IMG/VR virus record: IMGVR_UViG_2537561936_000015
DNA length: 45,623 nucleotides
Reading direction: 5' to 3' (one strand)
Source of the DNA: a virus
Taxonomy: Duplodnaviria > Heunggongvirae > Uroviricota > Caudoviricetes
Of the stretch, positions 11,260 through 45,623 are shown piece by piece (within the stretch, counting starts at the first letter, position 1; each line of letters begins with the position of its first letter). The notes beneath the pieces are model-generated. The model did not search any database. It was not told the origin of the DNA and saw nothing but the letters and a program-made list of their open reading frames with translations. The position numbers were made by a program, and so were the translations under genes.

Positions 11260-11592
11260 ATGAATCCTTATATTTATCTTGGTGGTGCAATACTTGCAGA
11301 GGTCATTGGTACAACCTTAATGAAGTTTTCAGAAGGTTTTACACGGTTATGGCCATCTGTTGGTACAATTATTTGTTATTGTGCATCATTCTGGTTATTA
11401 GCTCAGACGCTGGCTTATATTCCTACAGGGATTGCTTATGCTATCTGGTCAGGAGTCGGTATTGTCCTGATTAGCTTACTATCATGGGGATTTTTCGGCC
11501 AACGGTTGGACCTGCCAGCCATTATAGGCATGATGTTGATTTGTGCCGGTGTGTTGGTTATTAATTTATTGTCACGAAGCACACCACATTAA
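11260..11592 (+). CDS. emrE: Small multidrug resistance (SMR) efflux transporter EmrE
   Basis: 110-aa MNPYIYLGGAILAEVIGTTLMKFSEGFTRLWPSVGTIICYCASFWLLAQTLAYIP.. recognised as E. coli EmrE (DLP12 cargo gene). Confidence 0.9.
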   Translation: MNPYIYLGGAILAEVIGTTLMKFSEGFTRLWPSVGTIICYCASFWLLAQTLAYIPTGIAYAIWSGVGIVLISLLSWGFFGQRLDLPAIIGMMLICAGVLVINLLSRSTPH

Positions 11593-11847
11593 AAATAATT
11601 TGTTTTTAAACGACTAAAATATGGAGGCTCGTATATTTATATGGGCCTCGTTTTATGCTTTTTGTTAATGTCTTTAGTTTTTATTCATTCTTTTGTGCTT
11701 TCAAGATTATGGTGTAAGAAAATTGCAATACGATTATTGTTGTATATTCAAGATAATGTGACCTTAATTGTCTTTTTAAATAAAAATTAAACAAAAATCA
11801 TATCTCACCACTAAGGTTTATAAAAGCATACTTTAGCAGGTGTCACC

Positions 11848-13374
11848 ATGAAAAAAGCCATAGCATATATGCGATTTTCATCACCAGGTCAGATGTCTGG
11901 TGATTCATTAAACCGCCAGAGAAGGCTTATTACTGAATGGCTAAAGGTAAATAGTGATTATTACCTTGATACCGTAACGTATGAAGATTTGGGGTTAAGC
12001 GCATTCAATGGAAAGCATGCACAATCAGGAGCTTTTTCGGAATTTTTAGATGCTATAGAACATGGTTATATATTGCCAGGGACTACATTGTTAGTTGAAA
12101 GTCTGGACAGACTTTCAAGAGAAAAAGTCGGTGAAGCGATTGAGCGTCTGAAATTGATTTTGAATCACGGTATTGATGTTATAACTCTTTGCGATAATAC
12201 AGTCTATAATATTGACTCATTGAATGAGCCATATTCATTAATAAAAGCCATACTTATAGCACAAAGGGCAAATGAAGAAAGCGAGATAAAGTCAAGTCGG
12301 GTTAAATTATCATGGAAGAAAAAACGGCAGGATGCACTGGAGTCAGGCACGATTATGACGGCGTCTTGTCCGAGATGGCTCTCATTGGATGACAAAAGAA
12401 CGGCTTTTGTTCCAGACCCCGACAGGGTGAAAACTATTGAGCTAATTTTTAAACTCAGGATGGAAAGGCGCTCATTGAATGCAATAGCCAAGTATTTAAA
12501 TGATCATGCTGTAAAGAATTTCTCAGGAAAAGAAAGTGCATGGGGACCTTCTGTAATTGAAAAATTATTAGCGAATAAAGCTCTGATAGGTATATGCGTA
12601 CCTTCATATCGTGCAAGAGGTAAAGGAATAAGTGAAATCGCTGGCTATTATCCCAGAGTCATATCAGATGATTTGTTTTACGCTGTGCAGGAAATTCGGT
12701 TGGCACCTTTTGGTATTAGCAATAGTAGCAAAAATCCTATGTTGATAAATCTACTTCGAACAGTTATGAAGTGCGAGGCTTGTGGTAATACCATGATTGT
12801 TCATGCGGTATCTGGAAGTTTGCATGGCTATTATGTTTGTCCGATGAGAAGACTGCATCGATGTGACAGGCCATCAATAAAGAGAGATTTGGTTGATTAT
12901 AATATCATTAATGAGTTGCTTTTTAATTGTAGTAAAATCCAACCAGTTGAAAACAAGAAAGATGCTAATGAAACTTTAGAGTTGAAAATTATTGAGCTCC
13001 AGATGAAAATTAATAATTTAATTGCTGCATTATCTGTTGCGCCTGAAGTTACCGCTATAGCAGAAAAAATCAGAGTATTAGATAAGGAATTACGAAGGGC
13101 TTCTGTATCATTAAAAACTTTGAAGAGTAAAGCGGTGAGTTCACTTGGTGATTTTCATGCTATTGACTTAACCAGTAAAAATGGGCGAGAGCTATGTCGT
13201 ACACTTGCCTATAAAACATTCGAAAAAATCATAATCAATACAGATAATAAAACCTGTGATATCTATTTTATGAATGGCATTGTTTTTAAACACTATCCTT
13301 TAATGAAAACAATATCTGCCCAGCAGGCGATAAGTACTCTCAAATATATGGTTGATGGTGAGGTTTATTTTTGA
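11848..13374 (+). CDS. ybcK: Large serine recombinase (DLP12 YbcK-like)
   Basis: 508-aa ORF, N-terminal resolvase-type catalytic region (AYMRFSSPGQ); AT-rich; same position as ybcK in DLP12. Confidence 0.85.
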   Translation: MKKAIAYMRFSSPGQMSGDSLNRQRRLITEWLKVNSDYYLDTVTYEDLGLSAFNGKHAQSGAFSEFLDAIEHGYILPGTTLLVESLDRLSREKVGEAIERLKLILNHGIDVITLCDNTVYNIDSLNEPYSLIKAILIAQRANEESEIKSSRVKLSWKKKRQDALESGTIMTASCPRWLSLDDKRTAFVPDPDRVKTIELIFKLRMERRSLNAIAKYLNDHAVKNFSGKESAWGPSVIEKLLANKALIGICVPSYRARGKGISEIAGYYPRVISDDLFYAVQEIRLAPFGISNSSKNPMLINLLRTVMKCEACGNTMIVHAVSGSLHGYYVCPMRRLHRCDRPSIKRDLVDYNIINELLFNCSKIQPVENKKDANETLELKIIELQMKINNLIAALSVAPEVTAIAEKIRVLDKELRRASVSLKTLKSKAVSSLGDFHAIDLTSKNGRELCRTLAYKTFEKIIINTDNKTCDIYFMNGIVFKHYPLMKTISAQQAISTLKYMVDGEVYF

Positions 13375-16448: not shown

Positions 16449-16832
16449 ATGCGTGATATTCAGATGGTTCTTGAGCGTTGGGGAGCGTGGGCGGCTAATA
16501 ATCATGAAGATGTGACCTGGTCGTCCATTGCCGCCGGTTTTAAGGGATTAATTACTTCAAAAGTAAAATCTCGCCCGCAATGTTGTGACGATGACGCGAT
16601 GATTATTTGCGGGTGCATGGCCCGTCTGAAAAAGAACAACAGCGATTTGCACGATTTATTAGTAGATTATTATGTAGTCGGTATGACATTCATGTCACTG
16701 GCAGGTAAGCATTGCTGCTCTGATGGTTATATCGGGAAAAGGTTACAGAAGGCTGAGGGCATAATTGAAGGGATGTTAATGGCATTAGATATCCGGTTAG
16801 AGATGGATATCGTTGTTAATAACTCTAATTAA
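16449..16832 (+). CDS. quuD: Late-gene antiterminator Q (QuuD/phage-21 type)
   Basis: 127-aa [66 protein letters not shown].. ; position before lysis genes. Confidence 0.85.
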
Positions 16833-17020
16833 TATGCCAATTGTTTACTAAAAATTATTAAAAATGGGGCGTTGAGACGCCCCCAAAAATAAAGGGTAAT
16901 ATATAACAGAAGGTTTATATAGTTAGAAGCAAGGTTGTGCTCCTAAAGGAAGTGGCTTGAGGGAGCCACTTATATGTTGGGGAGGCAAAGCCTCCCGCAA
17001 CATATCTTTTAGTAATCAAA

Positions 17021-18103
17021 TTAGAACTGGTAAACCATACCTACAGCAACGATATCATCGGTAGCAACGCCAGATGCTTTCGTGAAATCGCTCTTATCAA
17101 TCAGGTTGATTTTGTAATCAACAAAAGTGGACATATTTTTGTTGAAGTAATAGGTTGCACCTACATCAATATATTCAACCAGGTCCTGATCACCCCACGC
17201 ACCCAAGTCTTTTCCTTTAGATTGCAGGTAAGCAACGGACGGACGCAGACCGAAGTCGAACTGATATTGTGCAACTACTTCGAAGTTTTGTGCTTTGTTG
17301 GCAATATGGTTATTACCAAAAACAGTCATGTTCTGGGTTTCAGAATAGGTGGTAGCCAGATAGATGTTGTTCGCATCATATTTCAGACCAGCTGCCCATA
17401 CTTCAGCATTTTGACCAGATGCATTCAGGCTGTTGTTACCGTAGATAACCTGATTATTAGTGCGGTCAGATTTAGCATAGGTTGCACCTACACCGAATCC
17501 TTCATACTCATAAGTAGTGGAGAAACCGAAACCATCACCATTAGCTTCAGTTACGTCAGTGCGGTCATTTTTACCCTGATACTGAGCAGCAAAGTTCAGA
17601 CCATCAACCAGACCAAAGAAGTCATTGTTACGATAAGTTGCAACACCTGTGGTGCGACCAGTCATGAATACATCTGTTTGGGTCCAGGTATCGCCACCGA
17701 ATTCTGGCAGAACGTCGGTCCATGCACCAATATCGTATGCTACACCGTAGTTACGGCCATAATCGATGGAGCCGTAGTCACCGAATTTCAGGCCAGCGAA
17801 GGCAAGACGGGTTTTGTCTTTGGAGGAACCTTGAGATTCAGCGCGGTTGCCTTTGAATTCATATTCCCACTGACCGAAACCAGTCAGTTGATCGTTGATT
17901 TGGGTTTCACCTTTGAAGCCAAGACGGGCATAAGTAGTATCACCATCATCTGCATCATTAGAGGAGAAGTAGTGCTTAGCATTAACTTTCCCGTACAGAT
18001 CCAGCTTGTTACTGTCTTTATTATAAATTTCAGCTGCCTGAGCAGACATCGCCATCAGTACTGATGCAGCTACAGCAGAAATTGCCACTGTTAATTTTTT
18101 CAT
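17021..18103 (-). CDS. nmpC: Outer membrane porin (NmpC/OmpD, OmpC family), lysogenic-conversion gene, apparently intact
   Basis: 360-aa ORF with signal peptide [24 protein letters not shown]-terminal ..VAVGMVYQF typical of general porins; opposite strand between Q and lysis genes as in DLP12. Confidence 0.9.
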
Positions 18104-18439
18104 CGTGAGCCCTTTTTTTGAACTATTATTAAAAAATGATGTCACTGCGCGATAAATATTCATCTAATCAATGTGATTATTTCAAGATGTAAGTTTTGGT
18201 TTCTCATTTGATTTGTGAAGTAGATCTCTATTTTTATCTGAACTTTTTCTATCGAATCCTATTCATGGCTCTTGGCTGAATAAAAATAAATCTATTAGCC
18301 AATTTATATTAATGGCTGTTATTTATAAGTGCTCTATAATTTGAAGGTTCAATTTAAACCAGCTAAAAATAACGCTGGAAATTATTTGTTGGTTATTTGT
18401 TGAGATTTGCTTATGTATTTGTAGTGGTGTTTTCAATAC

Positions 18440-18529
18440 TCGGTAGCATTCTCGCAAATATCATTTAGTGGTTTACGTACGTAAAAAATTGGTTATGCTG
18501 TTAAGAGTGGTTACTTCGTCACACAGCTT
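18440..18529 (+). promoter_or_regulatory. Candidate late promoter PR' / Q-utilisation region upstream of tR' (exact hexamers uncertain)
   Basis: AT-rich region with candidate -35 TTTACG / -10 TATGCT ~60 nt upstream of strong terminator and ~200 nt upstream of holin gene. Confidence 0.3.
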
Positions 18530-18565
18530 AAACCCGCCGTCGAGCGGGTTTTTCCATTTTTTGAG
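18530..18565 (+). terminator. Rho-independent terminator (tR'-like) AAACCCGC-cgtcga-GCGGGTTT + U-run
   Basis: Perfect 8-bp stem followed by TTTCCATTTTTT, just upstream of essD. Confidence 0.6.
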
Positions 18566-18690
18566 TCTCGATATTAGCTGATAACCCAATACCTGAGTTA
18601 TTCACTGACTCCGAGTCTGTTACGTTTCTGCTTTTTTGCGATACGTTGTATTCCCTCAATTTACACCCGCTTTGTCTGCGAGGTGGGGTT

Positions 18691-18906
18691 ATGAAATCCA
18701 TGGATAAGTTAACAACGGGTGTCGCCTATGGCACCTCAGCAGGTAGTGCCGGTTACTGGTTTTTACAGCTGCTCGATAAAGTCACGCCCTCACAGTGGGC
18801 AGCAATAGGTGTGCTGGGTAGCTTGGTATTTGGCCTGCTGACGTACCTGACAAACCTTTATTTCAAGATTAAAGAAGATAAGCGCAAGGCTGCGAGAGGT
18901 GAATAA
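18691..18906 (+). CDS. essD: Class II holin (pinholin, S21/EssD type) with dual-start motif MKSM
   Basis: 71-aa [71 protein letters not shown]. Confidence 0.85.
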
Positions 18907-19403
18907 TGCCTCCATCATTACGAAAAGCCGTTGCTGCTGCTATTGGTGGCGGAGCAATTGCTATAGCATCAGTGTTAATCACTGGCCCAAGTGGTAACGA
19001 TGGTCTGGAAGGTGTCAGCTACATACCATACAAAGATATCGTTGGCGTATGGACTGTATGTCACGGGCATACAGGAAAAGACATCATTCCCGGTAAAACG
19101 TATACCGAAGCAGAATGCAAAGCCCTCCTGAATAAAGACCTTGCCACGGTAGCCAGACAAATTAACCCGTACATCAAAGTCGATATACCGGAAACAACGC
19201 GCGGCGCTCTTTACTCGTTCGTCTATAACGTGGGCGCAGGCAATTTCAGAACATCTACTCTTCTTCGCAAAATAAACCAGGGCGATATCAAGGGCGCATG
19301 TGACCAGCTACGTCGCTGGGCATACGCTGGCGGTAAGCAATGGAAAGGCCTGATGACTCGTCGTGAGATTGAGCGTGAGGTCTGTTTGTGGGGGCAACAA
19401 TGA
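18906..19403 (+). CDS. rrrD: SAR endolysin (lysozyme, R21/RrrD type)
   Basis: 165-aa ORF with N-terminal signal-anchor-release segment ([20 protein letters not shown]) and lysozyme domain. Confidence 0.9.
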
Positions 19404-19867
19404 GCAGGGTAACCGCGATTATCTCCGCTCTGGTTATCTGCATCATCGTCTGCCTGTCATGGGCTGTTAATCATTACCGTGATAATGCAATCGCCTACAA
19501 AGAACAGCGCGATAACAAGGCCAGTGAACTGGAGAAGGCGAACGCCACCATTACTGACATGCAGCAGCGCCAGCGTGATGCTGATGCACTCGATGATAAA
19601 TACACGAAGGAGTTAGCTGATGCGAAAGCTGAAAATGATGCTCTTCGGCGCAAGCTTGATAATGGTGGTCGGGTGCTCGTCAAAGGAAAATGCCCTGTGC
19701 CATCCTCAGCCGAAACCTCCAGCGCCTCCGGCATGGGCAATGATGCCACCGTCGAACTCTCTCCAGTTGCTGGACGAAACGTTCTCGGTATCCGGGACGG
19801 AATTATCCGCGACCAAACAGCACTGAGAACGCTTCAGGAATACATCAGGACGCAATGCCTTCGATGA
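19400..19867 (+). CDS. rzpD: Spanin inner-membrane subunit Rz
   Basis: 155-aa ORF with N-terminal TM ([20 protein letters not shown]) and coiled-coil; overlaps endolysin stop. Confidence 0.8.
19620..19826 (+). CDS. rzoD: Spanin outer-membrane lipoprotein subunit Rz1, embedded in +1 frame of Rz
   Basis: 68-aa ORF with lipobox (MVVGC) and proline-rich segment [11 protein letters not shown]; AAGGAG RBS 7 nt upstream. Confidence 0.75.
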
Positions 19868-34701: not shown

Positions 34702-35399
34702 TGCAGGATATCCGACAGGAAACACTGAATGAATGCACCCGTGCGGAGCAGTCGGCCAGCGTGGTGCTCTGGGAAATCGACCTGACAGAGGTCGGTGGAG
34801 AACGTTATTTTTTCTGTAATGAGCAGAACGAAAAAGGTGAGCCGGTCACCTGGCAGGGGCGACAGTATCAGCCGTATCCCATTCAGGGGAGTGGTTTTGA
34901 ACTGAATGGCAAAGGCACCAGTACGCGCCCCACGCTGACGGTTTCTAACCTGTACGGTATGGTCACTGGGATGGCGGAAGATATGCAGAGTCTGGTCGGC
35001 GGAACGGTGGTCCGGCGTAAGGTTTACGCCCGTTTTCTGGATGCGGTGAACTTCGTCAACGGAAACAGTTACGCCGATCCGGAGCAGGAGGTGATCAGCC
35101 GCTGGCGCATTGAGCAGTGCAGCGAACTGAGCGCGGTGAGTGCCTCCTTTGTACTGTCCACGCCGACGGAAACGGATGGCGCTGTTTTTCCGGGACGTAT
35201 CATGCTGGCCAACACCTGCACCTGGACCTATCGCGGCGATGAGTGCGGTTATCACGGTCCGGCTGTCGCGGATGAATATGACCAGCCAACGTCCGATATC
35301 ACGAAGGATAAATGCAGCAAATGCCTGAGCGGTTGTAAGTTCCGCAATAACGTCGGCAACTTTGGCGGCTTCCTTTCCATTAACAAACTTTCGCAGTAA
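34701..35399 (+). CDS. L: Tail tip protein L
   Basis: 232-aa ORF recognised as lambda gpL (Cys cluster near C-terminus). Confidence 0.95.
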   Translation: MQDIRQETLNECTRAEQSASVVLWEIDLTEVGGERYFFCNEQNEKGEPVTWQGRQYQPYPIQGSGFELNGKGTSTRPTLTVSNLYGMVTGMAEDMQSLVGGTVVRRKVYARFLDAVNFVNGNSYADPEQEVISRWRIEQCSELSAVSASFVLSTPTETDGAVFPGRIMLANTCTWTYRGDECGYHGPAVADEYDQPTSDITKDKCSKCLSGCKFRNNVGNFGGFLSINKLSQ

Positions 35400-35404
35400 A
35401 TCCC

Positions 35405-36148
35405 ATGACACAGACAGAATCAGCGATTCTGGCGCACGCCCGGCGATGTGCGCCAGCGGAGTCGTGCGGCTTCGTGGTAAGCACGCCGGAGGGGGAAAGA
35501 TATTTTCCCTGCGTGAATATTTCCGGTGAGCCGGAGGCGTATTTCCGTATGTCGCCGGAAGACTGGCTGCAGGCAGAAATGCAGGGTGAGATTGTGGCGC
35601 TGGTCCACAGCCACCCCGGTGGTCTGCCCTGGCTGAGTGAGGCCGACCGGCGGCTGCAGGTGCAGAGTGATTTGCCGTGGTGGCTGGTCTGCCGGGGGAC
35701 GATTCATAAGTTCCGCTGTGTGCCGCATCTCACCGGGCGGCGCTTTGAGCACGGTGTGACGGACTGTTACACACTGTTCCGGGATGCTTATCATCTTGCA
35801 GGTATCGATTTGCCGGATTTTTACCGACATGATGACTGGTGGAAATCAGGTCAGAATCTCTATCTGGATAATCTGGAGGCCACAGGGCTGTATCAGGTGC
35901 CGTTGTCATCAGCACAACCGGGCGATGTGCTGCTGTGCTGCTTTGGTTCATCGGTGCCGAATCATGCCGCCATTTACTGTGGTGACGGCGAGCTGCTGCA
36001 CCATATTCCTGAACAACTGAGCAAACGAGAGAGGTATACCGACAAATGGCAGCGACGCACACACTCCCTCTGGCGTCACCAGGCATGGCACGTATCTGCC
36101 TTTACGGGGATTTACAACGATTTGGCCGCCGCATCGATCTGCGTGTGA
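35405..36148 (+). CDS. K: Tail tip assembly protein K (JAB/MPN + NlpC/P60 domains)
   Basis: 247-aa ORF with JAMM motif (ALVHSHPGG..SEAD) and NlpC/P60 Cys/His (DCYTLF, NHAAIY). Confidence 0.85.
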   Translation: MTQTESAILAHARRCAPAESCGFVVSTPEGERYFPCVNISGEPEAYFRMSPEDWLQAEMQGEIVALVHSHPGGLPWLSEADRRLQVQSDLPWWLVCRGTIHKFRCVPHLTGRRFEHGVTDCYTLFRDAYHLAGIDLPDFYRHDDWWKSGQNLYLDNLEATGLYQVPLSSAQPGDVLLCCFGSSVPNHAAIYCGDGELLHHIPEQLSKRERYTDKWQRRTHSLWRHQAWHVSAFTGIYNDLAAASICV

Positions 36149-36685
36149 AAACGGGGGCCGAAGCCATCCGGGCGCTGGCCATGCAGATCCCGGCGTTTCG
36201 TCAGAAGCTGAGCGACGGCTGGTATCAGGTACGCATTGCCGGGCGTGATACAGGTGAAACGGAATTATCAGCCCGTTTCATGAACTCTGGCTGATGGTGC
36301 TGTGATCCATATCGTGCCGCGTCTGGCAGGAGCCAAAAGTGGCGGTGTGTTTCAGGCTGTGCTGGGGGCGGCTGTTATGGCGGTTGCTATATGGATGCCG
36401 GGGGTAGGAATTATGGCGAGTAATCTGCTGTTTTCTCTCGGTGCCAGTATGACGCTTGGCGGTGTTGCACAGATGCTGGCCCCTAAACCCAAAACCCCCC
36501 GCACACAGACAACGGATAACGGCAAACAGAACACCTATTTTTCTTCACTGGATAACATGGTTGCCCAGGGCAATGTTCTGCCTGTTCTGTACGGTGAAAT
36601 GCGCGTGGGGTCACGCGTGGTTTCTCAGGAGATCAGCACGGCAGACGAAGGGGATGGTGGTCAGGTTGTGGTGATTGGTCGCTGA
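36046..36685 (+). pseudogene. I: Tail tip assembly protein I, split into two reading frames (36046-36294 and 36302-36685)
   Basis: N-terminal part (MAATHTLPLASPGMARICLYGDLQRFGRRIDLRVKTG..) ends at TGA 36292-36294; C-terminal part (..AVIHIVPRLAGAKSGG..QVVVIGR) is in the +1 frame; span is 640 nt, not a multiple of 3. Confidence 0.6.
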
Positions 36686-36745
36686 TGCAAAATGTTTTAT
36701 GTGAAACCGCCTGCGGGCGGTTTTGTCATTTATGGAGCGTGAGGA

Positions 36746-39700
36746 ATGGGTAAAGGCAGCAGTAAGGGGCATACCCCGCGCGAAGCGAAGGACAACCTGA
36801 AGTCCACGCAGCTGCTGAGTGTGATCGATGCCATCAGCGAAGGGCCGGTTGAAGGTCCGGTGGATGGATTAAAAAGCGTGCTGCTGAACAGTACGCCGGT
36901 GCTGGACACTGAGGGGAATACCAACATCTCCGGTGTCACGGTGGTGTTCCGTGCCGGTGAGCAGGAGCAGACACCGCCGGAGGGGTTTGAATCCTCCGGC
37001 TCCGAGACGGTGCTGGGTACGGAAGTGAAATATGACACGCCGATCACCCGCACCATTACGTCTGCAAACATCGACCGTCTGCGCTTTACCTTCGGTGTGC
37101 AGGCACTGGTGGAAACCACCTCAAAGGGGGACCGGAATCCGTCGGAAGTCCGCCTGCTGGTTCAGATACAGCGTAACGGTGGCTGGGTGACGGAAAAAGA
37201 CATCACCATTAAGGGCAAAACCACCTCGCAGTATCTGGCCTCGGTGGTGGTGGATAACCTGCCGCCGCGCCCGTTTAATATCCGGATGCGCAGGATGACG
37301 CCGGACAGCACCACAGACCAGCTGCAGAACAAAACGCTCTGGTCGTCATACACCGAAATCATCGATGTGAAACAGTGCTACCCGAACACGGCACTGGTCG
37401 GCGTGCAGGTGGACTCGGAACAGTTCGGCAGCCAGCAGGTGAGCCGTAATTATCATCTTCGCGGGCGTATTCTGCAGGTGCCGTCGAACTATAACCCGCA
37501 GACGCGGCAATACAGCGGTATCTGGGACGGAACGTTTAAGCCAGCATACAGCAACAACATGGCCTGGTGTATGTGGGATATGCTGACCCATCCGCGCTAC
37601 GGCATGGGGAAGCGTCTCGGTGCAGCGGATGTAGATAAATGGGCGCTGTATGTCATCGGCCAGAATTGCGACCAGTCGGTGCCGGATGGCTTTGGTGGCA
37701 CGGAGCCGCGCATCACCTGTAATGCCTGGCTGACCACACAGCGCAAGGCGTGGGATGTTCTCAGTGATTTCTGCTCGGCGATGCGCTGTATGCCGGTATG
37801 GAACGGGCAGACGCTGACGTTCGTGCAGGACCGACCGTCGGATAAGGTGTGGACCTATAACCGCAGTAATGTGGTGATGCCGGATGATGGCGCGCCGTTC
37901 CGCTACAGCTTCAGTGCCCTGAAGGACCGTCATAATGCCGTTGAGGTGAACTGGATTGACCCGGATAACGGCTGGGAGACGGCGACAGAGCTTGTTGAAG
38001 ATACGCAGGCCATTGCCCGTTACGGTCGTAACGTCACGAAGATGGATGCCTTTGGCTGTACCAGCCGGGGGCAGGCGCACCGCGCCGGGCTGTGGCTGAT
38101 TAAAACGGAACTACTGGAAACGCAGACCGTGGACTTCAGCGTGGGTGCGGAAGGGCTTCTCCATGTGCCGGGCGATGTCATTGAAATCTGCGATGATGAC
38201 TATGCGGGGATCAGCACCGGCGGGCGCGTGCTGGCGGTGAACAGCCAGACCCGGACGCTGACGCTCGACCGTGAAATCACGCTGCCATCCTCCGGTACCA
38301 CGCTGATAAGCCTGGTTGACGGAAGTGGCAATCCGGTCAGCGTGGAGGTCCAGTCCGTCACCGACGGCGTGAAGGTAAAAGTGAGCCGTGTTCCTGACGG
38401 CGTTGCCGGATACAGCGTATGGGGGCTGAAGCTGCCGACGCTGCGCCAGCGCCTGTTCCGCTGCGTGAGTATCCGTGAGAACGACGACGGCACGTATGCC
38501 ATCACCGCCGTGCAGCATGTACCGGAAAAAGAAGCCATCGTGGATAACGGGGCGCACTTTGACGGCGACCAGAGCGGCACGGTGAATGGTGTCACGCCGC
38601 CAGCAGTGCAGCACCTGACTGCCGAAGTCACCGCAGACAGCGGGGAGTATCAGGTACTGGCCCGCTGGGACACGCCGAAGGTGGTGAAGGGCGTGAGTTT
38701 CCTGCTCCGTCTGACCGTGACAGCGGATGACGGCAGTGAGCGGCTGGTCAGCACAGCCAGGACGACGGAAACCACATACCGCTTCACGCAACTGGCGCTG
38801 GGAAATTACAGGCTGACAGTCCGGGCGGTAAATGCGTGGGGACAGCAGGGCGATCCGGCATCGGTATCGTTCCGGATTGCCGCACCGGCAGCACCGTCGC
38901 GGATTGAGCTGACGCCGGGCTATTTTCAGATAACCGCCACGCCGCATCTTGCGGTTTATGATCCGACGGTACAGTTTGAGTTCTGGTTCTCGGAAAAGCG
39001 GATTGCGGATATCAGGCAGGTTGAAACCACAGCACGCTATCTTGGCACGGCGCTGTACTGGATAGCCGCCAGTATCAATATCAGGCCGGGCCATAATTAT
39101 TATTTTTACGTTCGCAGTGTGAACACCGTTGGCAAATCGGCATTCGTGGAGGCTGTTGGTCAGCCGAGTGATGACGCATCCGGCTATCTGGATTTTTTCA
39201 AAGGCGAGATAGGGAAAACCCATCTGGCTCAGGAGCTGTGGACGCAGATTGATAACGGTCAGCTTGCGCCTGACCTGGCTGAAATCAGGACATCCATTAC
39301 GGATGTCAGCAATGAAATCACACAGACCGTCAATAAGAAACTGGAAGACCAGAGTGCAGCGATCCAGCAGATACAGAAGGTTCAGGTTGATACAAATAAT
39401 AATCTGAACAGCATGTGGGCTGTGAAGCTGCAGCAGATGCAGGACGGACGCCTTTATATCGCGGGTATCGGTGCCGGTATTGAGAACACCTCCGACGGCA
39501 TGCAGAGTCAGGTGCTGCTGGCGGCAGACAGGATTGCGATGATTAATCCTGCGAATGGCAACACAAAGCCGATGTTTGTTGGTCAGGGCGATCAGATATT
39601 CATGAACGAAGTGTTCCTGAAATATCTGACGGCTCCCACCATTACCAGCGGCGGTAATCCTCCGGCATTTTCCCTGACACCGGACGGAAAGCTGACCGCT

Positions 39701-40225
39701 AAAAATGCGGATATCAGTGGCAGTGTGAATGCGAACGCCGGGACGCTCAACAACGTCACGATTAACGAGAACTGCCGGGTTCTGGGAAAACTGTCCGCGA
39801 ACCAGATTGAAGGCGATCTCGTTAAAACAGTGGGCAAAGCTTTCCCCCGGGACTCCCGTGCACCGGAGCGGTGGCCATCAGGGACCATTACCGTCAGGGT
39901 TTATGACGATCAGCCGTTTGACCGGCAAATTGTTATTCCGGCGGTGGCATTCAGTGGCGCTAAGCATGAGAGAGAGCATACTGATATTTACTCCTCATGC
40001 CGTCTGATAGTGCGGAAAAACGGTGCTGAAATTTATAACCGTACCGCGCTGGATAATACGCTGATTTACAGTGGCGTTATTGATATGCCTGCCGGTCACG
40101 GTCACATGACGCTGGAGTTTTCGGTATCAGCATGGCTGGTGAATAACTGGTATCCCACAGCAAGTATCAGCGATTTGCTGGTTGTGGTGATGAAGAAAGC
40201 CACCGCAGGCATCAGTATCAGCTGA
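36746..40225 (+). CDS. J: Tail tip / host-specificity protein J
   Basis: 1159-aa [48 protein letters not shown].. recognised as lambda gpJ family. Confidence 0.95.
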
Positions 40226-40243
40226 ATTTTATAACCCATATAC

Positions 40244-40269
40244 GGGCGCCAGAAATGGCGCCTTTTTTA
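40244..40269 (+). terminator. Rho-independent terminator after J (GGCGCC-agaaat-GGCGCC + T6)
   Basis: Perfect 6-bp stem with T-run. Confidence 0.55.
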
Positions 40270-40292
40270 TTGCAGAAAAGCGAGAGGTAATT

Positions 40293-40892
40293 ATGCGTAA
40301 ATTATGTGCTGTTATTCTGTCCGCAGCCATCTGTCTGTCCGTATCCGGTGCGCCTGCATGGGCGTCTGAACATCAGTCCACACTGAACGCGGGGTATCTT
40401 CATGCCCGTACGAACGCTCCCGGCAGCGATAATCTGAACGGGATTAACGTGAAATACCGTTATGAGTTTACGGACACGCTGGGGCTGGTGACGTCATTCA
40501 GTTATGCCAATGCCAAAGATGAGCAAAAAACGCATTACAGCGATACCCGCTGGCATGAAGATTCCGTGCGTAACCGCTGGTTCAGCGTGATGGCGGGGCC
40601 GTCTGTACGCGTGAATGAATGGTTCAGCGCGTATGCGATGGCGGGTGTGGCTTACAGCCGTGTGTCGACTTTCTCCGGGGATTATCTCCGCGTAACTGAC
40701 AACAAGGGGAAAACGCACGACGTGCTGACCGGAAGTGATGACGGTCGCCACAGCAATACCTCTCTGGCGTGGGGAGCTGGCGTGCAGTTTAACCCGACCG
40801 AATCCGTGGCCGTTGATGTCGCTTATGAAGGCTCCGGCAGCGGTGACTGGCGTACCAACAGTTTCATCGTGGGTGTCGGCTATAAATTCTGA
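40293..40892 (+). CDS. lom: Outer membrane protein Lom (Ail/Lom family)
   Basis: 199-aa ORF with signal peptide, C-terminal ..GVGYKF beta-barrel signature; position after J as in lambda. Confidence 0.9.
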   Translation: MRKLCAVILSAAICLSVSGAPAWASEHQSTLNAGYLHARTNAPGSDNLNGINVKYRYEFTDTLGLVTSFSYANAKDEQKTHYSDTRWHEDSVRNRWFSVMAGPSVRVNEWFSAYAMAGVAYSRVSTFSGDYLRVTDNKGKTHDVLTGSDDGRHSNTSLAWGAGVQFNPTESVAVDVAYEGSGSGDWRTNSFIVGVGYKF

Positions 40893-40918
40893 TTAGCCAG
40901 GTAACACAGTGTTATGAC

Positions 40919-40946
40919 AGCCCGCCGGTTCAGGCGGGCTTTTTTG
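40919..40946 (+). terminator. Rho-independent terminator after lom (AGCCCGCC-ggttca-GGCGGGCT + T5)
   Basis: Perfect 8-bp stem with T-run. Confidence 0.55.
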
Positions 40947-40957
40947 TGGGGGGGAAT

Positions 40958-43870
40958 ATGGCAGTACTGATTTCAGGTGTACTGAAAGACGGTGCAGGTA
41001 AGCCGATACAAAACTGCACCATTCAGCTAAAGGCCAGGCGCAACAGCACCACGGTGGTGGTGAACACAGTGGCCTCAGAAAATCCGGATGAAGCCGGGCG
41101 TTATACAATGGACGTCGAGTATGGTCAGTACAGCGTCAGTCTGTTGGTGGAGGGGTTCCCGCCGTCACACGCCGGGATTATCACCGTATATGAGGACTCA
41201 AAGCCTGGCACACTGAATGATTTCCTCGGTGCAATGACGGAGGATGATGCCCGTCCGGAGGCACTGCGCCGTTTTGAGCTGATGGTGGAAGAGGTGGCGC
41301 GTAACGCCTCCGCGGTGGCACAGAACACGGCAGCCGCGAAGAAGTCAGCCAGCGATGCCAGCACATCAGCCCGTGAGGCGGCAACCCGTGCGACTGATGC
41401 TGCAGGCTCAGCACGTGCCGCCAGCACGTCAGCCGGACAGGCCGCGTCGTCGGCTCAGTCAGCGTCTTCCAGCGCAGGAACGGCATCGACAAAGGCCAGT
41501 GAAGCAGCGAAAAGTGCTGCTGCTGCAGAGTCATCAAAAAGCGCGGCAGCCACCAGTGCCGGTGCGGCGAAAACGTCAGAAACGAATGCTGCAGCGTCAC
41601 AAAAATCTGCAGCCGCTTCTGCATCCACCGCGACCATGAAGGCGTCAGAAGCTGCCACCTCGGCACGGGATGCGGCTGCCTCAAAAGAGGCAGCAAAATC
41701 ATCAGAAACGAATGCATCATCAAGTGCCAGTAGTGCAGCTTCCTCGGCAACGGCGGCAGGCAATTCCGCGAAGACGGCAAAGACGGCTGAGACAAACGCT
41801 AAGTCTTCTGAAACGGCAGCAGCACAGAGTGCCTCCGCAGCAGCGGGCTCAAAAACAGCGGCTGCATCGTCGGCCAGTGCCGCGTCAACAAGTGCCGGGC
41901 AGGCCTCAGCCAGTGCCACCGCCGCCGGAAAATCGGCAGAAAGCGCCGCATCATCCGCTTCAACAGCCACAACGAAGGCTGGCGAAGCCACTGAGCAAGC
42001 CACTGCAGCAGCGAGGTCTGCTTCTGCAGCAAAAACCTCTGAAACAAATGCAAAGACTTCAGCAGACAATGCTGCTTCCTCTAAGGCGGCAGCCGCATCG
42101 TCCGCTGGTTCAGCGGCGTCATCGGCATCATCTGCGTCTGCTTCAAAAGATGAGGCGACCAGACAAGCGTCAGCAGCGAAAGGTAGTGCCACGACAGCAA
42201 CAACGAAAGCATCAGAGGCGGCAGGCAGTGCGACGGCTGCATCTCAGAGCAAAGTTGCTGCTGAATCCGCGGCAACGCGTGCCGAAACAGCGGCAAAACG
42301 GGCAGAGGATATTGCTGATGCCGTATCTCTGGAAGATGCGAGCACGACGAAAAAAGGTGTGGTTCAGCTCAGCAGCGCGACCAACAGCACTTCCGAGTCA
42401 CTGGCGGCAACACCAAAGGCAGTAAAGGCAGCATATGATCTTGCTAACGCAAAATATACCGCTCAGGACGCCACGACGGCACGAAAAGGGGTAGTTCAGC
42501 TCAGTAGCGCCACTAACAGCCCGTCTGAAACGCTGGCTGCGACACCAAAAGCGGTTAAGGCGGTAATGGATGAAACGAACAAGAAAGCGCCTTTAAACAG
42601 TCCTGCGCTGACCGGAACGCCAACAACGCCAACTGCGCCAAAAGGGACTAATAATACTCAGATCGCAAGCACGGCTTATGTGATGGCCGCGATTGCCGCA
42701 CTTGTAGACTCGTCGCCTGACGCACTGAATACGCTGAACGAGCTGGCGGCGGCGCTGGGAAACGACCCGAATTTTGCGACCACCATGACTAACGCGCTTG
42801 CGGGTAAGCAACCGAAAGATGCCACCCTGACGGCGCTGGCCGGGCTTGCTACTGCGGCAGACAGGTTTCCGTATTTTACGGGGAATGATGTCGCCAGCCT
42901 GGCAACCCTGACAAAAGTCGGGCGGGATATTCTTGCGAAATCGACCGTTGCCGCTGTTATCGAATACCTCGGTTTACAGGAAACGGTAAACAAGGCTGGT
43001 AACGCCGTTCAGCGTTCCGGTGATAAAATGACCGGAGAACTGAAAATTGGCACGGTGAATGCGCTGCGAATTTTCAATGATGCCTTCGGTCTTATTTTCC
43101 GTCGTTCAGAAGATTTTCTTCATTTCATTCCGACGGCTGAAGGACAAGGCGAAAACGGTGATATCGGCCCATTAAGGCCATTCGCTATAAATCTGAGAAC
43201 AGGTGCTATATCTGTCAGCCACGGGGCCAAAATTGAAGGAGGTCTAGCTATTGGAGCTACTGATAACGCACTGGGTGAAAACTCCATTGTTCTGGGAGAT
43301 AACGACACCGGATTTAGGCAAGATGGAGATGGTTTTATTAGCTTCTTTTCAAATGGTTCGCGCATAGGACATATTGATGAGTTAGGATTACATATTTATA
43401 AAGATATTGAATCTAATGGCAGCAATTTTAGATTAAAAGGTAATTACCGCCACCACATTACATTCGCCAACGAAGACGGAAGTATTCGTATGTTTTTGTG
43501 GAAAGATAAAGATGGTGATGGTGTTCATATTAATAATGGTTCAAGCGGTGGCGGTGATTTCGTTTTTAAAACAGATGGGGGATTTGCGCTGGGAAGTGGT
43601 GCGCAAGTTGCGTCTAATGGCGATATTTATGGTTCAGTGTGGGAAAACAACTGGTTAAGCGCATGGCTGCATAATCATGTCGTTCGGGATATTCGTCTTG
43701 GCAGCATTGAATATAAAAACGTATGGCGCGACTCCGGCTTTGGCGATGCGTCAGGTTATGTTTTAACAGCCGCAATTAACAGCAATGCGGATGATATTGT
43801 CGACACTGTTGCCAGAAGGCCAATTCAGAAATTGATTGGGGGAATATGGTATAACGTGGGGAGTGTTTAA
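40958..43870 (+). CDS. stf: Side tail fibre protein Stf with Ala/Ser-rich repeat shaft and exchangeable C-terminal tip
   Basis: 970-aa from [49 protein letters not shown].. recognised as lambda Stf N-terminus; C-terminal ~300 aa AT-rich and non-lambda. Confidence 0.9.
42957..42982. promoter_or_regulatory. Gin/Pin/Cin-type DNA invertase crossover site (gix-like) inside stf
   Basis: TTATCGAATACCTCGGTTTACAGGAA; reverse complement matches Mu gix (TTCCTGTAAACCGAGGTTTTGGATAA, from memory) at 23 of 26 positions; encodes ..IEYLGLQE.. Confidence 0.6.
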
Positions 43871-43871
43871 G

Positions 43872-44399
43872 ATGATGCACCTGAAAAATATTAAGGCCGG
43901 GAATCCGAAAACAAAAGAGCAATACCAGCTAACTAAAAAAGCGGGCGTGGTATGGCTCTTTTGCGAAGATGGCAAAAACTGGTATGAGGAACAAAAGAAT
44001 TTTCAGCCAGACACCATAAAAATTGCTTACGATGAGAACAACATCATCGTTGCTGTCAGTAAAGACGTTTCAACTATTAATCCTGAAGGGCTAAGCATAG
44101 TTGAAGTTCCTGATATTACGGCAAATCGTCGCGCAGACAATAACGGAAAATGGATGTTTCTGGATGGTAAAGTAGTAAAGAGGGAATATACAGAACAGGA
44201 ACTGCAACAACAGGCCGAATCACAAAAGGCCGCATTGCTTTCCGAAGCTGAATCAGTCATCCAGCCGCTGGAACGCGCTGTCAGGCTGAATATGGCAACA
44301 GACGAGGAACGCACACGACTGGAAGCATGGGAACGCTACAGTGTTCTGGTCAGCCGTGTGGATACGGCAAATCCTGAATGGCCACAAAAGCCTGAATAA
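43872..44399 (+). CDS. tfa: Tail fibre assembly protein Tfa
   Basis: 175-aa [48 protein letters not shown].. Confidence 0.85.
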
Positions 44400-44405
44400 A
44401 AATTA

Positions 44406-44422
44406 AGGCCCGATAGCGGGCC
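44406..44422. terminator. Hairpin AGGCCCG-atag-CGGGCCT between convergent tfa genes (putative bidirectional terminator)
   Basis: 7-bp perfect stem between stop codons at 44399 and 44428. Confidence 0.4.
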
Positions 44423-44427
44423 TCGTC

Positions 44428-44961
44428 TCATTCAGGTTGTTCGGGAAATGTTACTGGCAGGCTGGAGGTGTCTGTAGATTCGACTTTCTGCGCATAGAGC
44501 ATCCACTCGGTTAATTTTTGTTTATTCTCGTCGGAAATGATGCCCAGCCGTAGCTGTGAGTCCCATAGCTGGGTTTTATCCCTGACAAGTTGCAACAGGC
44601 TTTGCTTTTCATTCTCTGCCTGCTGCCTCTGTTCCTCTTCGGTATAAGTTCGCTTTATCACTACGCCATCTTTGAACATCCATTTACCCGAAATATCAGC
44701 CCGGCGATTTGCTGTAATATCAGGTAATTCAACGACGCTTGCGCCTTCCGGATTAATTGCTGAAACATCCTTTTCAATACAAATAATAACGCCGTTATGG
44801 TCATAGGCCATTTTCAATGTGTCTGGCCGGAAATTCTTTTGTTCCTCATACCAGTTTTTTCCATTGTCTGAATAAAGCCATTTGATGTTAAATTGCTTTG
44901 TTAGCTGGTATTGCTCTTTTGTTTTAGGATTGCCAGCAGTAATGTTTTTTAAGTGCATCAT
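44428..44961 (-). CDS. Alternative tail fibre assembly protein Tfa' (inverted orientation)
   Basis: 177-aa [48 protein letters not shown].., paralogous to tfa at 43872-44399 on the opposite strand. Confidence 0.8.
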   Translation of the reverse strand: MMHLKNITAGNPKTKEQYQLTKQFNIKWLYSDNGKNWYEEQKNFRPDTLKMAYDHNGVIICIEKDVSAINPEGASVVELPDITANRRADISGKWMFKDGVVIKRTYTEEEQRQQAENEKQSLLQLVRDKTQLWDSQLRLGIISDENKQKLTEWMLYAQKVESTDTSSLPVTFPEQPE

Positions 44962-44963
44962 AA

Positions 44964-45623
44964 TTAAATACTCCCTGCGTTATACCACGTTCCATTAATG
45001 CAATACTGAATTGGCCTTGCCTGAGTTGTATCAATTAATTCATCACGGTTTCCGTTAACTGAACCCGTAACGACATAACCTGACCTGTCAGACCAGCCGG
45101 GACCATTCCATGTCTGAACAGATGACAGACCGCCCAGACGAATACCTGTAATAAACTTTGAGTTACATTCCGCTTTGGTATATGCACCAACATCCCCCGC
45201 AGAGGGTTTGTAGGTTGTGGTGTAAAACGCTGACCAGTTATCTTCAAAGCCATAACCATCACGCGCTGAACGATAAAGGATACCGCCGTTCCTGTAATTC
45301 ACACGGAACTGTACGGCAGGGCAACTCCCCGTATTCATATTGAAGTGGAGTATTAATGCTGTTGCGCCTTTGATATCTGCATCATAAACACCGCTATTCC
45401 AGTTCCAGCCAACAGCTTTATCATTTGCAACCCTGCTTCCTGTTTGCCCTAAAGCAAATGCAGGCTGCTGGTTTTTCGTGTTGTAGTCTCGTCGCCAGCC
45501 AGGAGCATAAGCATCACCATGATTAATATAGGTGAATTGAGCGTTAGTAATTCCGCCGCCGCTGGACGTACTCGCCGTAGTAACGCGTATGGTCATTGCG
45601 CCGCGAGTGCCAATAACTTCCAC
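44964..45623 (-). CDS. Alternative side tail fibre C-terminal domain (inverted orientation; 5' end beyond window)
   Basis: Open to window edge; C-terminus ..RDELIDTTQARPIQYCINGTWYNAGSI parallels stf C-terminus ..[26 protein letters not shown]. Confidence 0.75.
   Translation of the reverse strand: MEVIGTRGAMTIRVTTASTSSGGGITNAQFTYINHGDAYAPGWRRDYNTKNQQPAFALGQTGSRVANDKAVGWNWNSGVYDADIKGATALILHFNMNTGSCPAVQFRVNYRNGGILYRSARDGYGFEDNWSAFYTTTYKPSAGDVGAYTKAECNSKFITGIRLGGLSSVQTWNGPGWSDRSGYVVTGSVNGNRDELIDTTQARPIQYCINGTWYNAGSI

Follow-up and report, generated by a model that had tools for sequence, protein, structure and literature searches.

An intact lc/nmpC-type porin gene in reverse orientation between Q and PR' of a complete lambdoid prophage

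An intact porin gene between Q and the lysis genes

We analysed the porin gene and its surroundings in a 45,623-nucleotide stretch of viral DNA (IMG/VR record IMGVR_UViG_2537561936_000015; hereafter the window), which holds a lambdoid prophage that is complete and occupies the lambda attachment site. The gene order is ybhC, int, xis, exo/bet/gam, repressor, O/P/ren, emrE, ybcK, nin region, rusA, Q, porin, lysis, terminase, head, tail, J, lom, and side tail fibres, and the nin-to-lysis part belongs to the type known from prophage DLP12 of Escherichia coli K-12. The porin gene lies on the - strand between the gene for the late antiterminator Q and the lysis cassette (Table 1). We consider it highly probable that this gene and its flanks (~16854-18235) form an intact lc/nmpC-ipeX lysogenic-conversion cassette, which is reversed between Q and the cognate late promoter PR' and lies outside the late operon.

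Table 1. Features of the Q-to-lysis interval, in window coordinates (UTR, untranslated region; ORF, open reading frame; TSS, transcription start site; SAR, signal-anchor-release)
Feature	Position	Strand	Evidence and details
Late antiterminator Q (QuuD type)	16449..16832	+	Pfam PF06530, E = 4e-53
3'UTR of the porin gene, IpeX RNA homologue	16854..17020	-	167 nt; four internal hairpins, then intrinsic terminator
Intact porin gene lc/nmpC (360 aa)	17021..18103	-	ORF, Pfam, and alignment evidence; signal peptide encoded by 18035-18103
Strong divergent promoter	18124..18136	+	-10 TATTAT 18124-18129, TSS A 18136; back-to-back with PnmpC
Porin promoter PnmpC	18148..18185	-	-35 TTGAAA 18185-18180, 18-nt spacer, -10 GAATAT 18161-18156, TSS G ~18148
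CRP-binding site (predicted)	18211..18231	-	Annotated in PA-2 record J02580.1; exactly conserved; centre at -73 from porin TSS
Late promoter PR'	18472..18506	+	-35 TTTACG 18472-18477, -10 TATGCT 18494-18499, TSS A 18506
Initial transcribed region of PR', probably qut	18502..18526	+	Block TAAGAGTGGTTAC invariant across 6 phages
Intrinsic terminator tR'	18530..18562	+	Hairpin 18530-18551, 8-bp GC-rich stem and U-run; scan, fold, and VT1-Sakai alignment
Lysis cassette: P21-type holin, SAR-type lysozyme, Rz	18691..19867	+	PF04971, PF00959, PF03245; RefSeq essD/rrrD

The - strand ORF spans 17021-18163, and the ATG at 18103 gives the 360-aa reading. Because the alternative in-frame ATG at 18163, which would give 380 aa, lies upstream of the porin TSS at ~18148 mapped in K-12, the 360-aa start is the correct one. 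The product matches the Pfam family Porin_1 (PF00267; E = 3e-153) over the entire model (positions 1-337 of 337), has a 23-aa signal peptide that ends in AQA (an A-x-A cleavage site) and is followed by AEIYNK, and terminates in ...GMVYQF with an aromatic Phe, a residue type required for assembly into the outer membrane, as the last residue; Y358, Q359, and F360 are invariant in the alignment. The signal peptide is as long as the sig_peptide annotated for Lc of phage PA-2, and the mature chains in the PDB begin at residue 24 of the window porin. A preliminary description of this DNA had proposed, at 17021-18103, a 360-aa general porin with signal peptide and C-terminal Phe, antisense between Q and the lysis cassette; both the assignment and the coordinates are borne out.

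With respect to the family of the porin, the product name in RefSeq/PGAP is 'ompC: porin OmpC' while several phage records use OmpD. The porin exceeds the cut-off of the NCBIfam 'porin OmpC' subfamily model (518 bits vs 484) and stays below the NCBIfam equivalog cut-offs for both PhoE and OmpF. When aligned end-to-end with solved chains, it is closest to OmpK37, followed by OmpC, PhoE, and OmpF. Its named relatives are Lc, NmpC, and Salmonella OmpD (~80% identity), and the exact window protein falls in a cluster of 2741 sequences named 'porin OmpC'. The RefSeq/PGAP name and the NCBIfam OmpC subfamily match would both be expected if the gene were host ompC or a chromosomal paralogue instead of phage cargo. 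We regard the probability of this as negligible, because the gene sits within a complete prophage, with int/xis (1419-2685) on one side and the tail genes on the other, the same gene is present in 42 phage records, the named relatives include Lc and NmpC, E. coli OmpC ranks below OmpK37 among the solved structures, and the subfamily model is not an equivalog. We conclude that the gene is the lc/nmpC porin and not a chromosomal OmpC orthologue. The name 'porin OmpC' stems from a subfamily-level model, hides the Lc/NmpC identity, and masks the fact that the gene is prophage cargo.

For comparison, K-12 nmpC was rebuilt by removing IS5B and one copy of the CTAA target duplication. The window porin and rebuilt K-12 NmpC are identical at 329 of 365 aligned positions (90%), including the first 147 residues in full, and are separated by two in-frame indels (3 aa and 2 aa); the identity to PA-2 Lc is likewise 329/365 (90%). 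The window porin gene is intact: the alignment to IS5-free K-12 NmpC revealed no frameshift, internal stop, or insertion sequence (IS) element in it. This alignment had been suggested in the preliminary description as a check, with a frameshift or truncation relative to functional porins as the refuting outcome, and the two in-frame indels are all that it brought up; the accompanying statement that nmpC is disrupted by IS5 in K-12 DLP12 and uninterrupted in the window also holds, with IS5 lying after K-12 codon 346. Moreover, the porins of the sequenced phages PhiR34_1 and PhiR68_2 are 100% identical to the window porin at the protein level.

An AlphaFold2 model of the window porin contains 16 strands (predicted local distance difference test 72), with constriction loop L3 modelled at low confidence. 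The PEFGGD motif of L3 is kept in a 29-sequence alignment, although F and D alone reach the 90% level. Based on the strand map of the model, 26 of the 36 differences from K-12 NmpC or PA-2 Lc sit in the external loops L4-L8. Similarly, column entropy across 28 homologues is 1.0-2.0 bits in L1, L2, and L4-L8, compared with 0.30 in the strands and 0.16 in L3, and is at most ~0.5 in six of the seven periplasmic turns (T2, 1.28). Judged from these alignments, the concentration of variation in the loops is the normal pattern expected of a functional surface-exposed porin under diversifying pressure. Because the PA-2 Lc differences concentrate in L4-L8 in this way, the window porin represents a different surface allele.

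Transcription signals around the porin gene

Upstream of the porin gene, at 18100-18500, the GC content is 27.5-29.5% compared with ~50% in the flanks, in agreement with the AT-rich upstream region noted earlier. All TSS positions given for the window are transferred from identical K-12 sequence; for TSSs in U00096.2 the transfer used a 777-bp offset and the K-12/window alignment. SMRT-Cappable-seq of K-12 defined a reverse-strand unit b0553|b0552 (nmpC-IS5) with a TSS at NC_000913.3 576870, which maps to window ~18148. In 5' rapid amplification of cDNA ends (5'RACE) in K-12, the TSS of PnmpC was a 'G' and the promoter was active enough to drive the IS5 transposase (PMC11677980); the - strand base at window 18148 is also a G. 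The distance from this TSS to the ATG at 18103 gives a 5'UTR of 45 nt. The promoter hexamers of PnmpC are our own reading of the sequence. A simple promoter scan of both spacers flanking the porin gene returned nothing at or above 9/12, and the actual promoters, which are weaker matches to the consensus, were recovered via TSS data and homology.

The two CRP sites of the PA-2 annotation recur without any change in the window, at 18211-18231 and 18506-18526. The proximal, predicted site has a class-I-like position relative to the porin TSS, and together with PnmpC it is in line with the reading of the porin gene as antisense cargo under regulation of its own. The distal 'CRP site', annotated for PA-2 in 1986, is 368 nt away from the porin TSS and overlaps the initial transcribed block of PR'. 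Because this block is conserved also in porin-less phages, being nearly invariant at 18506-18526 in Shiga toxin (Stx) phages that lack the porin, a role in PR'/qut accounts for its conservation better than a role in regulating the porin does, and the distal site is probably not a porin site.

On the other side of the gene, the 167 nt that follow the stop codon share ~98% identity with the corresponding stretches 3' of nmpC in K-12 and 3' of lc in PA-2. The differences amount to a few substitutions and one 1-nt indel, and the one substitution noted in a stem turns an A-U pair into a G-U pair. A 171-nt stretch 3' of the stop codon folds at -63.2 kcal/mol (z = -9.6), and a terminator scan placed the terminator of the porin unit at a - strand hairpin (16883-16866) with a U-run. 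An Rfam scan gave no family over this region and one spurious Trp_leader match on the tR' hairpin (E = 0.52). IpeX of DLP12 is an RNA of 167 nt that originates in the porin transcript, driven by the phage porin promoter, is subsequently processed, and represses OmpC and OmpF (PMC12197685; PMC5069750; PMC7177473; PMC3333887). We take the structured porin 3'UTR to be the IpeX regulatory RNA, the likely core of the lysogenic-conversion phenotype.

The late control elements were delimited by comparison with phages that carry the same type of Q. Q of the window is identical to K-12 QuuD at 127 of 127 residues, is 78% identical to Q of the VT1-Sakai/H-19B type, and shows no more than a distant relationship to Q21 (32 bits). 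The segment located directly 3' of Q in many Stx and Shigella phages matches window 18471-18553 at 78-90% identity. In VT1-Sakai, this segment is annotated with a 'putative late promoter', a 'putative Q-utilization' feature, and a 'rho-independent terminator for pR' transcript', and in Ss-VASD with a 'putative late promoter PR''. Window 18472-18499 aligns base for base with the annotated late promoters of both phages, and the 'putative Q-utilization' (qut) feature of VT1-Sakai aligns to ~18513-18520; given the 78% identity between the two Q proteins, the window and VT1-Sakai would be expected to have qut in common. Moreover, a K-12 Cappable-seq TSS at U00096.2 576452 on the + strand (score 1.7) maps to window 18506, 7 nt past TATGCT. 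The leader from PR' to tR' would be ~57 nt. These comparisons point to a PR'-qut-tR' unit with its cognate Q, located distal to the porin gene, at which Q-dependent read-through of tR' is predicted.

The preliminary description had guessed PR' to lie at 18440-18565, an interval that contains both PR' and tR' as placed here by the Stx-phage annotations and the K-12 TSS, and had argued that late transcription would not have to cross the porin gene. The latter point holds as well: because PR' lies beyond the porin 5' end, late transcription starts past the gene and need not cross it, and the K-12 Cappable-seq table, for which we used the + strand rows, contains no + strand TSS between the Q stop and the porin stop. 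By contrast, the IpeX element and the strong + strand start at 18136 (see below) had both been overlooked. The position of the porin between Q and the lysis genes is the slot occupied by stx and other morons, and a porin expressed mainly in lytic growth from Q-modified transcription, in the manner of stx, would be in keeping with that position. We consider such a late-operon moron extremely unlikely, because the porin is on the opposite strand, so that rightward transcription would yield antisense RNA only, because PR' and tR' lie past its 5' end, and because it has its own mapped promoter and terminator.

Transfer of the Q-binding element of phage 21 (TGAGCA repeats; PMC6606751) was dropped because window Q is only distantly related to Q21, and a TGAGCC/TGAACT pair upstream of the 18136 start, which resembles that element, was unsupported and is not used. 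Phage Lambda_ev087 was uninformative as a delimiter of PR', its Q diverging over residues 77-127 and having no downstream DNA in common with the window. Separately, a 16-bp stretch, TCTGCTTTTTTGCGAT, in the holin leader (18628-18643) is absent from K-12 DLP12, the spacer being otherwise 96% identical.

The strongest + strand start of the Q-to-holin interval in K-12 is not PR' but a TSS at U00096.2 576081 (Cappable-seq score 90.2), which maps to window 18136. This TSS is 7 nt past TATTAT and 12 nt from the porin TSS on the opposite strand, so that the two promoters overlap. The predicted transcript of 427 nt would run across PR' and end at tR'. The TSS coincides with the A of the ATG that opens a leaderless 18-codon ORF; a ribosome-profiling preprint on small proteins makes no mention of this ORF. 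A published 'SRRz promoter' of DLP12 is numbered -121 to +650 (PMC7918800, after Rueggeberg 2015), with the forward primer at window 18031-18050, and this frame puts +1 near window 18152. Therefore, the RpoE-regulated promoter of the DLP12 lysis cassette may lie near 18136/18152. A GAACT-N16-TCACT motif next to this +1 can tentatively be read as RpoE-like. K-12 also has + strand starts inside Q (16676, score 9.3) and antisense within the porin ORF (17163 and 17517, scores 16.8 and 2.8). The promoter sequences around these three starts are conserved in the window, and they could yield antisense RNA to the porin/IpeX transcript.

Related modules and the proposed working of the cassette

The closest described relative is lc of PA-2 (J02580.1; Blasband, Marcotte and Schnaitman 1986), which shares with the window the position and orientation beside the lysis genes, the signal peptide, the two CRP sites, and the 3'UTR. 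Over 2.2 kb (window 16795-19000) the nucleotide identity is 92.7%, whereas the two porins differ by 36 aa, including two small indels, and in length (365 aa vs 360 aa). K-12 DLP12 (qsr') has an identical Q, homologous nin region, PR'/tR', and lysis genes, and a 96% identical spacer; it differs in that IS5 after codon 346 replaces the last 19 residues of NmpC and cuts the porin off from ipeX, and in that DLP12 is a remnant at argU while the window prophage is complete and located on the lambda attB side (ybhC). Salmonella OmpD and Klebsiella OmpK37 belong to the same branch and have the same barrel and L3 motif; however, they are encoded by chromosomal genes, whereas the window porin is phage-borne with a phage-specific promoter and 3'UTR.

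Stx phages such as H-19B and VT1-Sakai have a Q of the same family, a homologous PR'/qut/tR', and cargo in the Q-to-holin interval. In these phages, however, PR' overlaps the end of Q, and stx is located downstream of tR', is co-oriented, and depends on Q, while the window has a 1.6-kb antisense cassette between Q and PR' that is independent of Q. Other antisense genes occupy the Q-PR' slot in SfII (SfII_49/50; record 1082-2696) and cdtI (orf53/54, one of them DUF6731; record 1512-2900), in both cases followed by a homologous PR'/tR', and in Lambda_ev087 a Q with the same N-terminus as in the window is followed by an antisense lipocalin gene, blc (record 647-1171).

The Q-porin(-)-holin gene order is found in 42 phage records and is common to PhiR34_1, PA-2, 434B, and DLP12. 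PhiR34_1 and PhiR68_2 are induced ECOR phages with the same gene order as the window, and 434B has a K-12-type, IS5-disrupted copy of the porin gene. Among 5426 complete E. coli genomes, the 2.5-kb Q-porin-holin module has matches in 4971, and in 2396 of the 5426 the matches cover at least 80% of it, so that at least 2396 are taken to have the module; IS-interrupted copies are part of this count. The feature as such is already known: phage-borne Lc/NmpC, its place in a DLP12-type late region, catabolite control, and the IpeX tail were described between 1975 and 2006, and the module in 1985-86.

What the analysis itself established is the intactness of the gene, its family, the position of the cassette, and the conservation of the promoter, the CRP site, IpeX, PR', and tR'. 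We infer expression in this strain, CRP dependence, repression of OmpC and OmpF, and exclusion of phages and colicins from the literature on PA-2 and DLP12, and the label 'lysogenic conversion' is likewise taken over from published work on PA-2 and DLP12. On this basis, the cassette may work as follows. In the lysogen, host RNA polymerase would start at the sigma-70 promoter of the cassette (TSS ~18148), stimulated by CRP bound at -73. The 360-aa porin precursor would be exported by Sec and assemble as a 16-strand general-diffusion porin, the variable external loops of which would set the phage porin apart from other alleles. The porin transcript would run through the 167-nt 3'UTR and stop at the terminator before Q, and IpeX would lower host OmpC and OmpF post-transcriptionally. 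The net outcome would be that the phage porin replaces the major porins of the host, with an altered permeability and with OmpC-type receptors lost to superinfecting phages and colicins.

Alternatively, the porin could be intact but quiescent, that is, essentially silent in the lysogen and without a phenotype under ordinary conditions, for example due to H-NS silencing of the 28% GC region or to interference from the divergent promoter. We consider this unlikely. The upstream region is indeed very AT-rich, the strong + strand start at 18136 overlaps PnmpC back-to-back, and antisense TSSs lie inside the gene at 17163 and 17517. However, K-12 PnmpC is the main driver of IS5 transposase transcription and is seen by both 5'RACE and SMRT-Cappable-seq; thousands of genomes, and viable phages as well, retain an undamaged ORF with its loops, CRP site, and IpeX; and PA-2 lysogens reportedly make Lc as a major outer-membrane protein.

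Several points weigh against an expressed lysogenic-conversion cassette. Judging by its title, a 1998 study by Prilipov reportedly places nmpC among the 'quiescent' porin genes of E. coli B, which also speaks for a silent porin and suggests that expression is possibly low or conditional. The TSS data come from K-12, in which nmpC is split by IS5. The PR' TSS is weak in K-12 (score 1.7) and the 18136 start is 50x stronger, and Q may act on either of the two. IpeX is taken to lie exactly in this 3'UTR following the description in PMC12197685; Castillo-Keller, Vuong and Misra (2006) reportedly placed it there. Finally, a comparison of the C-terminal 300 aa of J gave no receptor assignment for the prophage, and self-exclusion via loss of OmpC is therefore conjectural for this phage; the closest J sequences are those of another ECOR phage and of Stx2a phages, while lambda-type J is at ~54%.

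A more far-reaching idea, to which we give little credence, is that the 5' edge of the porin cassette functions as a regulatory node. Occupancy of the 18136 promoter and of PnmpC would then be mutually exclusive, and host signals (CRP, possibly RpoE) would switch between expressing the porin with IpeX and a transcription that either interferes with the late promoter and the lysis genes or primes them; the Q-PR' slot would be a recurrent landing site for antisense cargo expressed in the lysogen.

Because the lc/nmpC-ipeX module is present in close to half of the complete E. coli genomes, porin-based predictions of antibiotic permeability and phage receptors should consider intact nmpC-ipeX. The placement of PR' and tR' together with the divergent start also provides a map for studies of lysis-gene regulation in DLP12-type prophages.

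Further cargo and the right end of the prophage

The window holds further cargo genes. In the early-right region, emrE, which encodes an SMR (small multidrug resistance) multidrug efflux protein, and a ybcK-type serine recombinase gene are located at 11260-13374, as in DLP12, and represent additional cargo of non-phage character. A second outer-membrane cargo gene of the prophage is lom at 40293-40892, which encodes an outer-membrane beta-barrel of the Ail/Lom type.

The best-matching E. coli record is near-identical to the window up to ~34.9 kb. Beyond this point (~34900-45623) the two differ in J, in the side tail fibre, and at the right end; therefore, the tail end is mosaic. At the extreme right, 43816-45623 holds an inverted duplicate of the side-tail-fibre tip and assembly gene, comprising one tfa in forward orientation (43836-44399, +), a second, inverted tfa (44428-44961, -), and a gp37_C-like ORF (44964-45623, -) that is cut off by the window end. 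This tfa/gp37_C-like segment is flanked by inverted repeats of 55-267 nt and, in its layout, resembles the invertible segments that determine host range in Mu (G), P1 (C), or e14.

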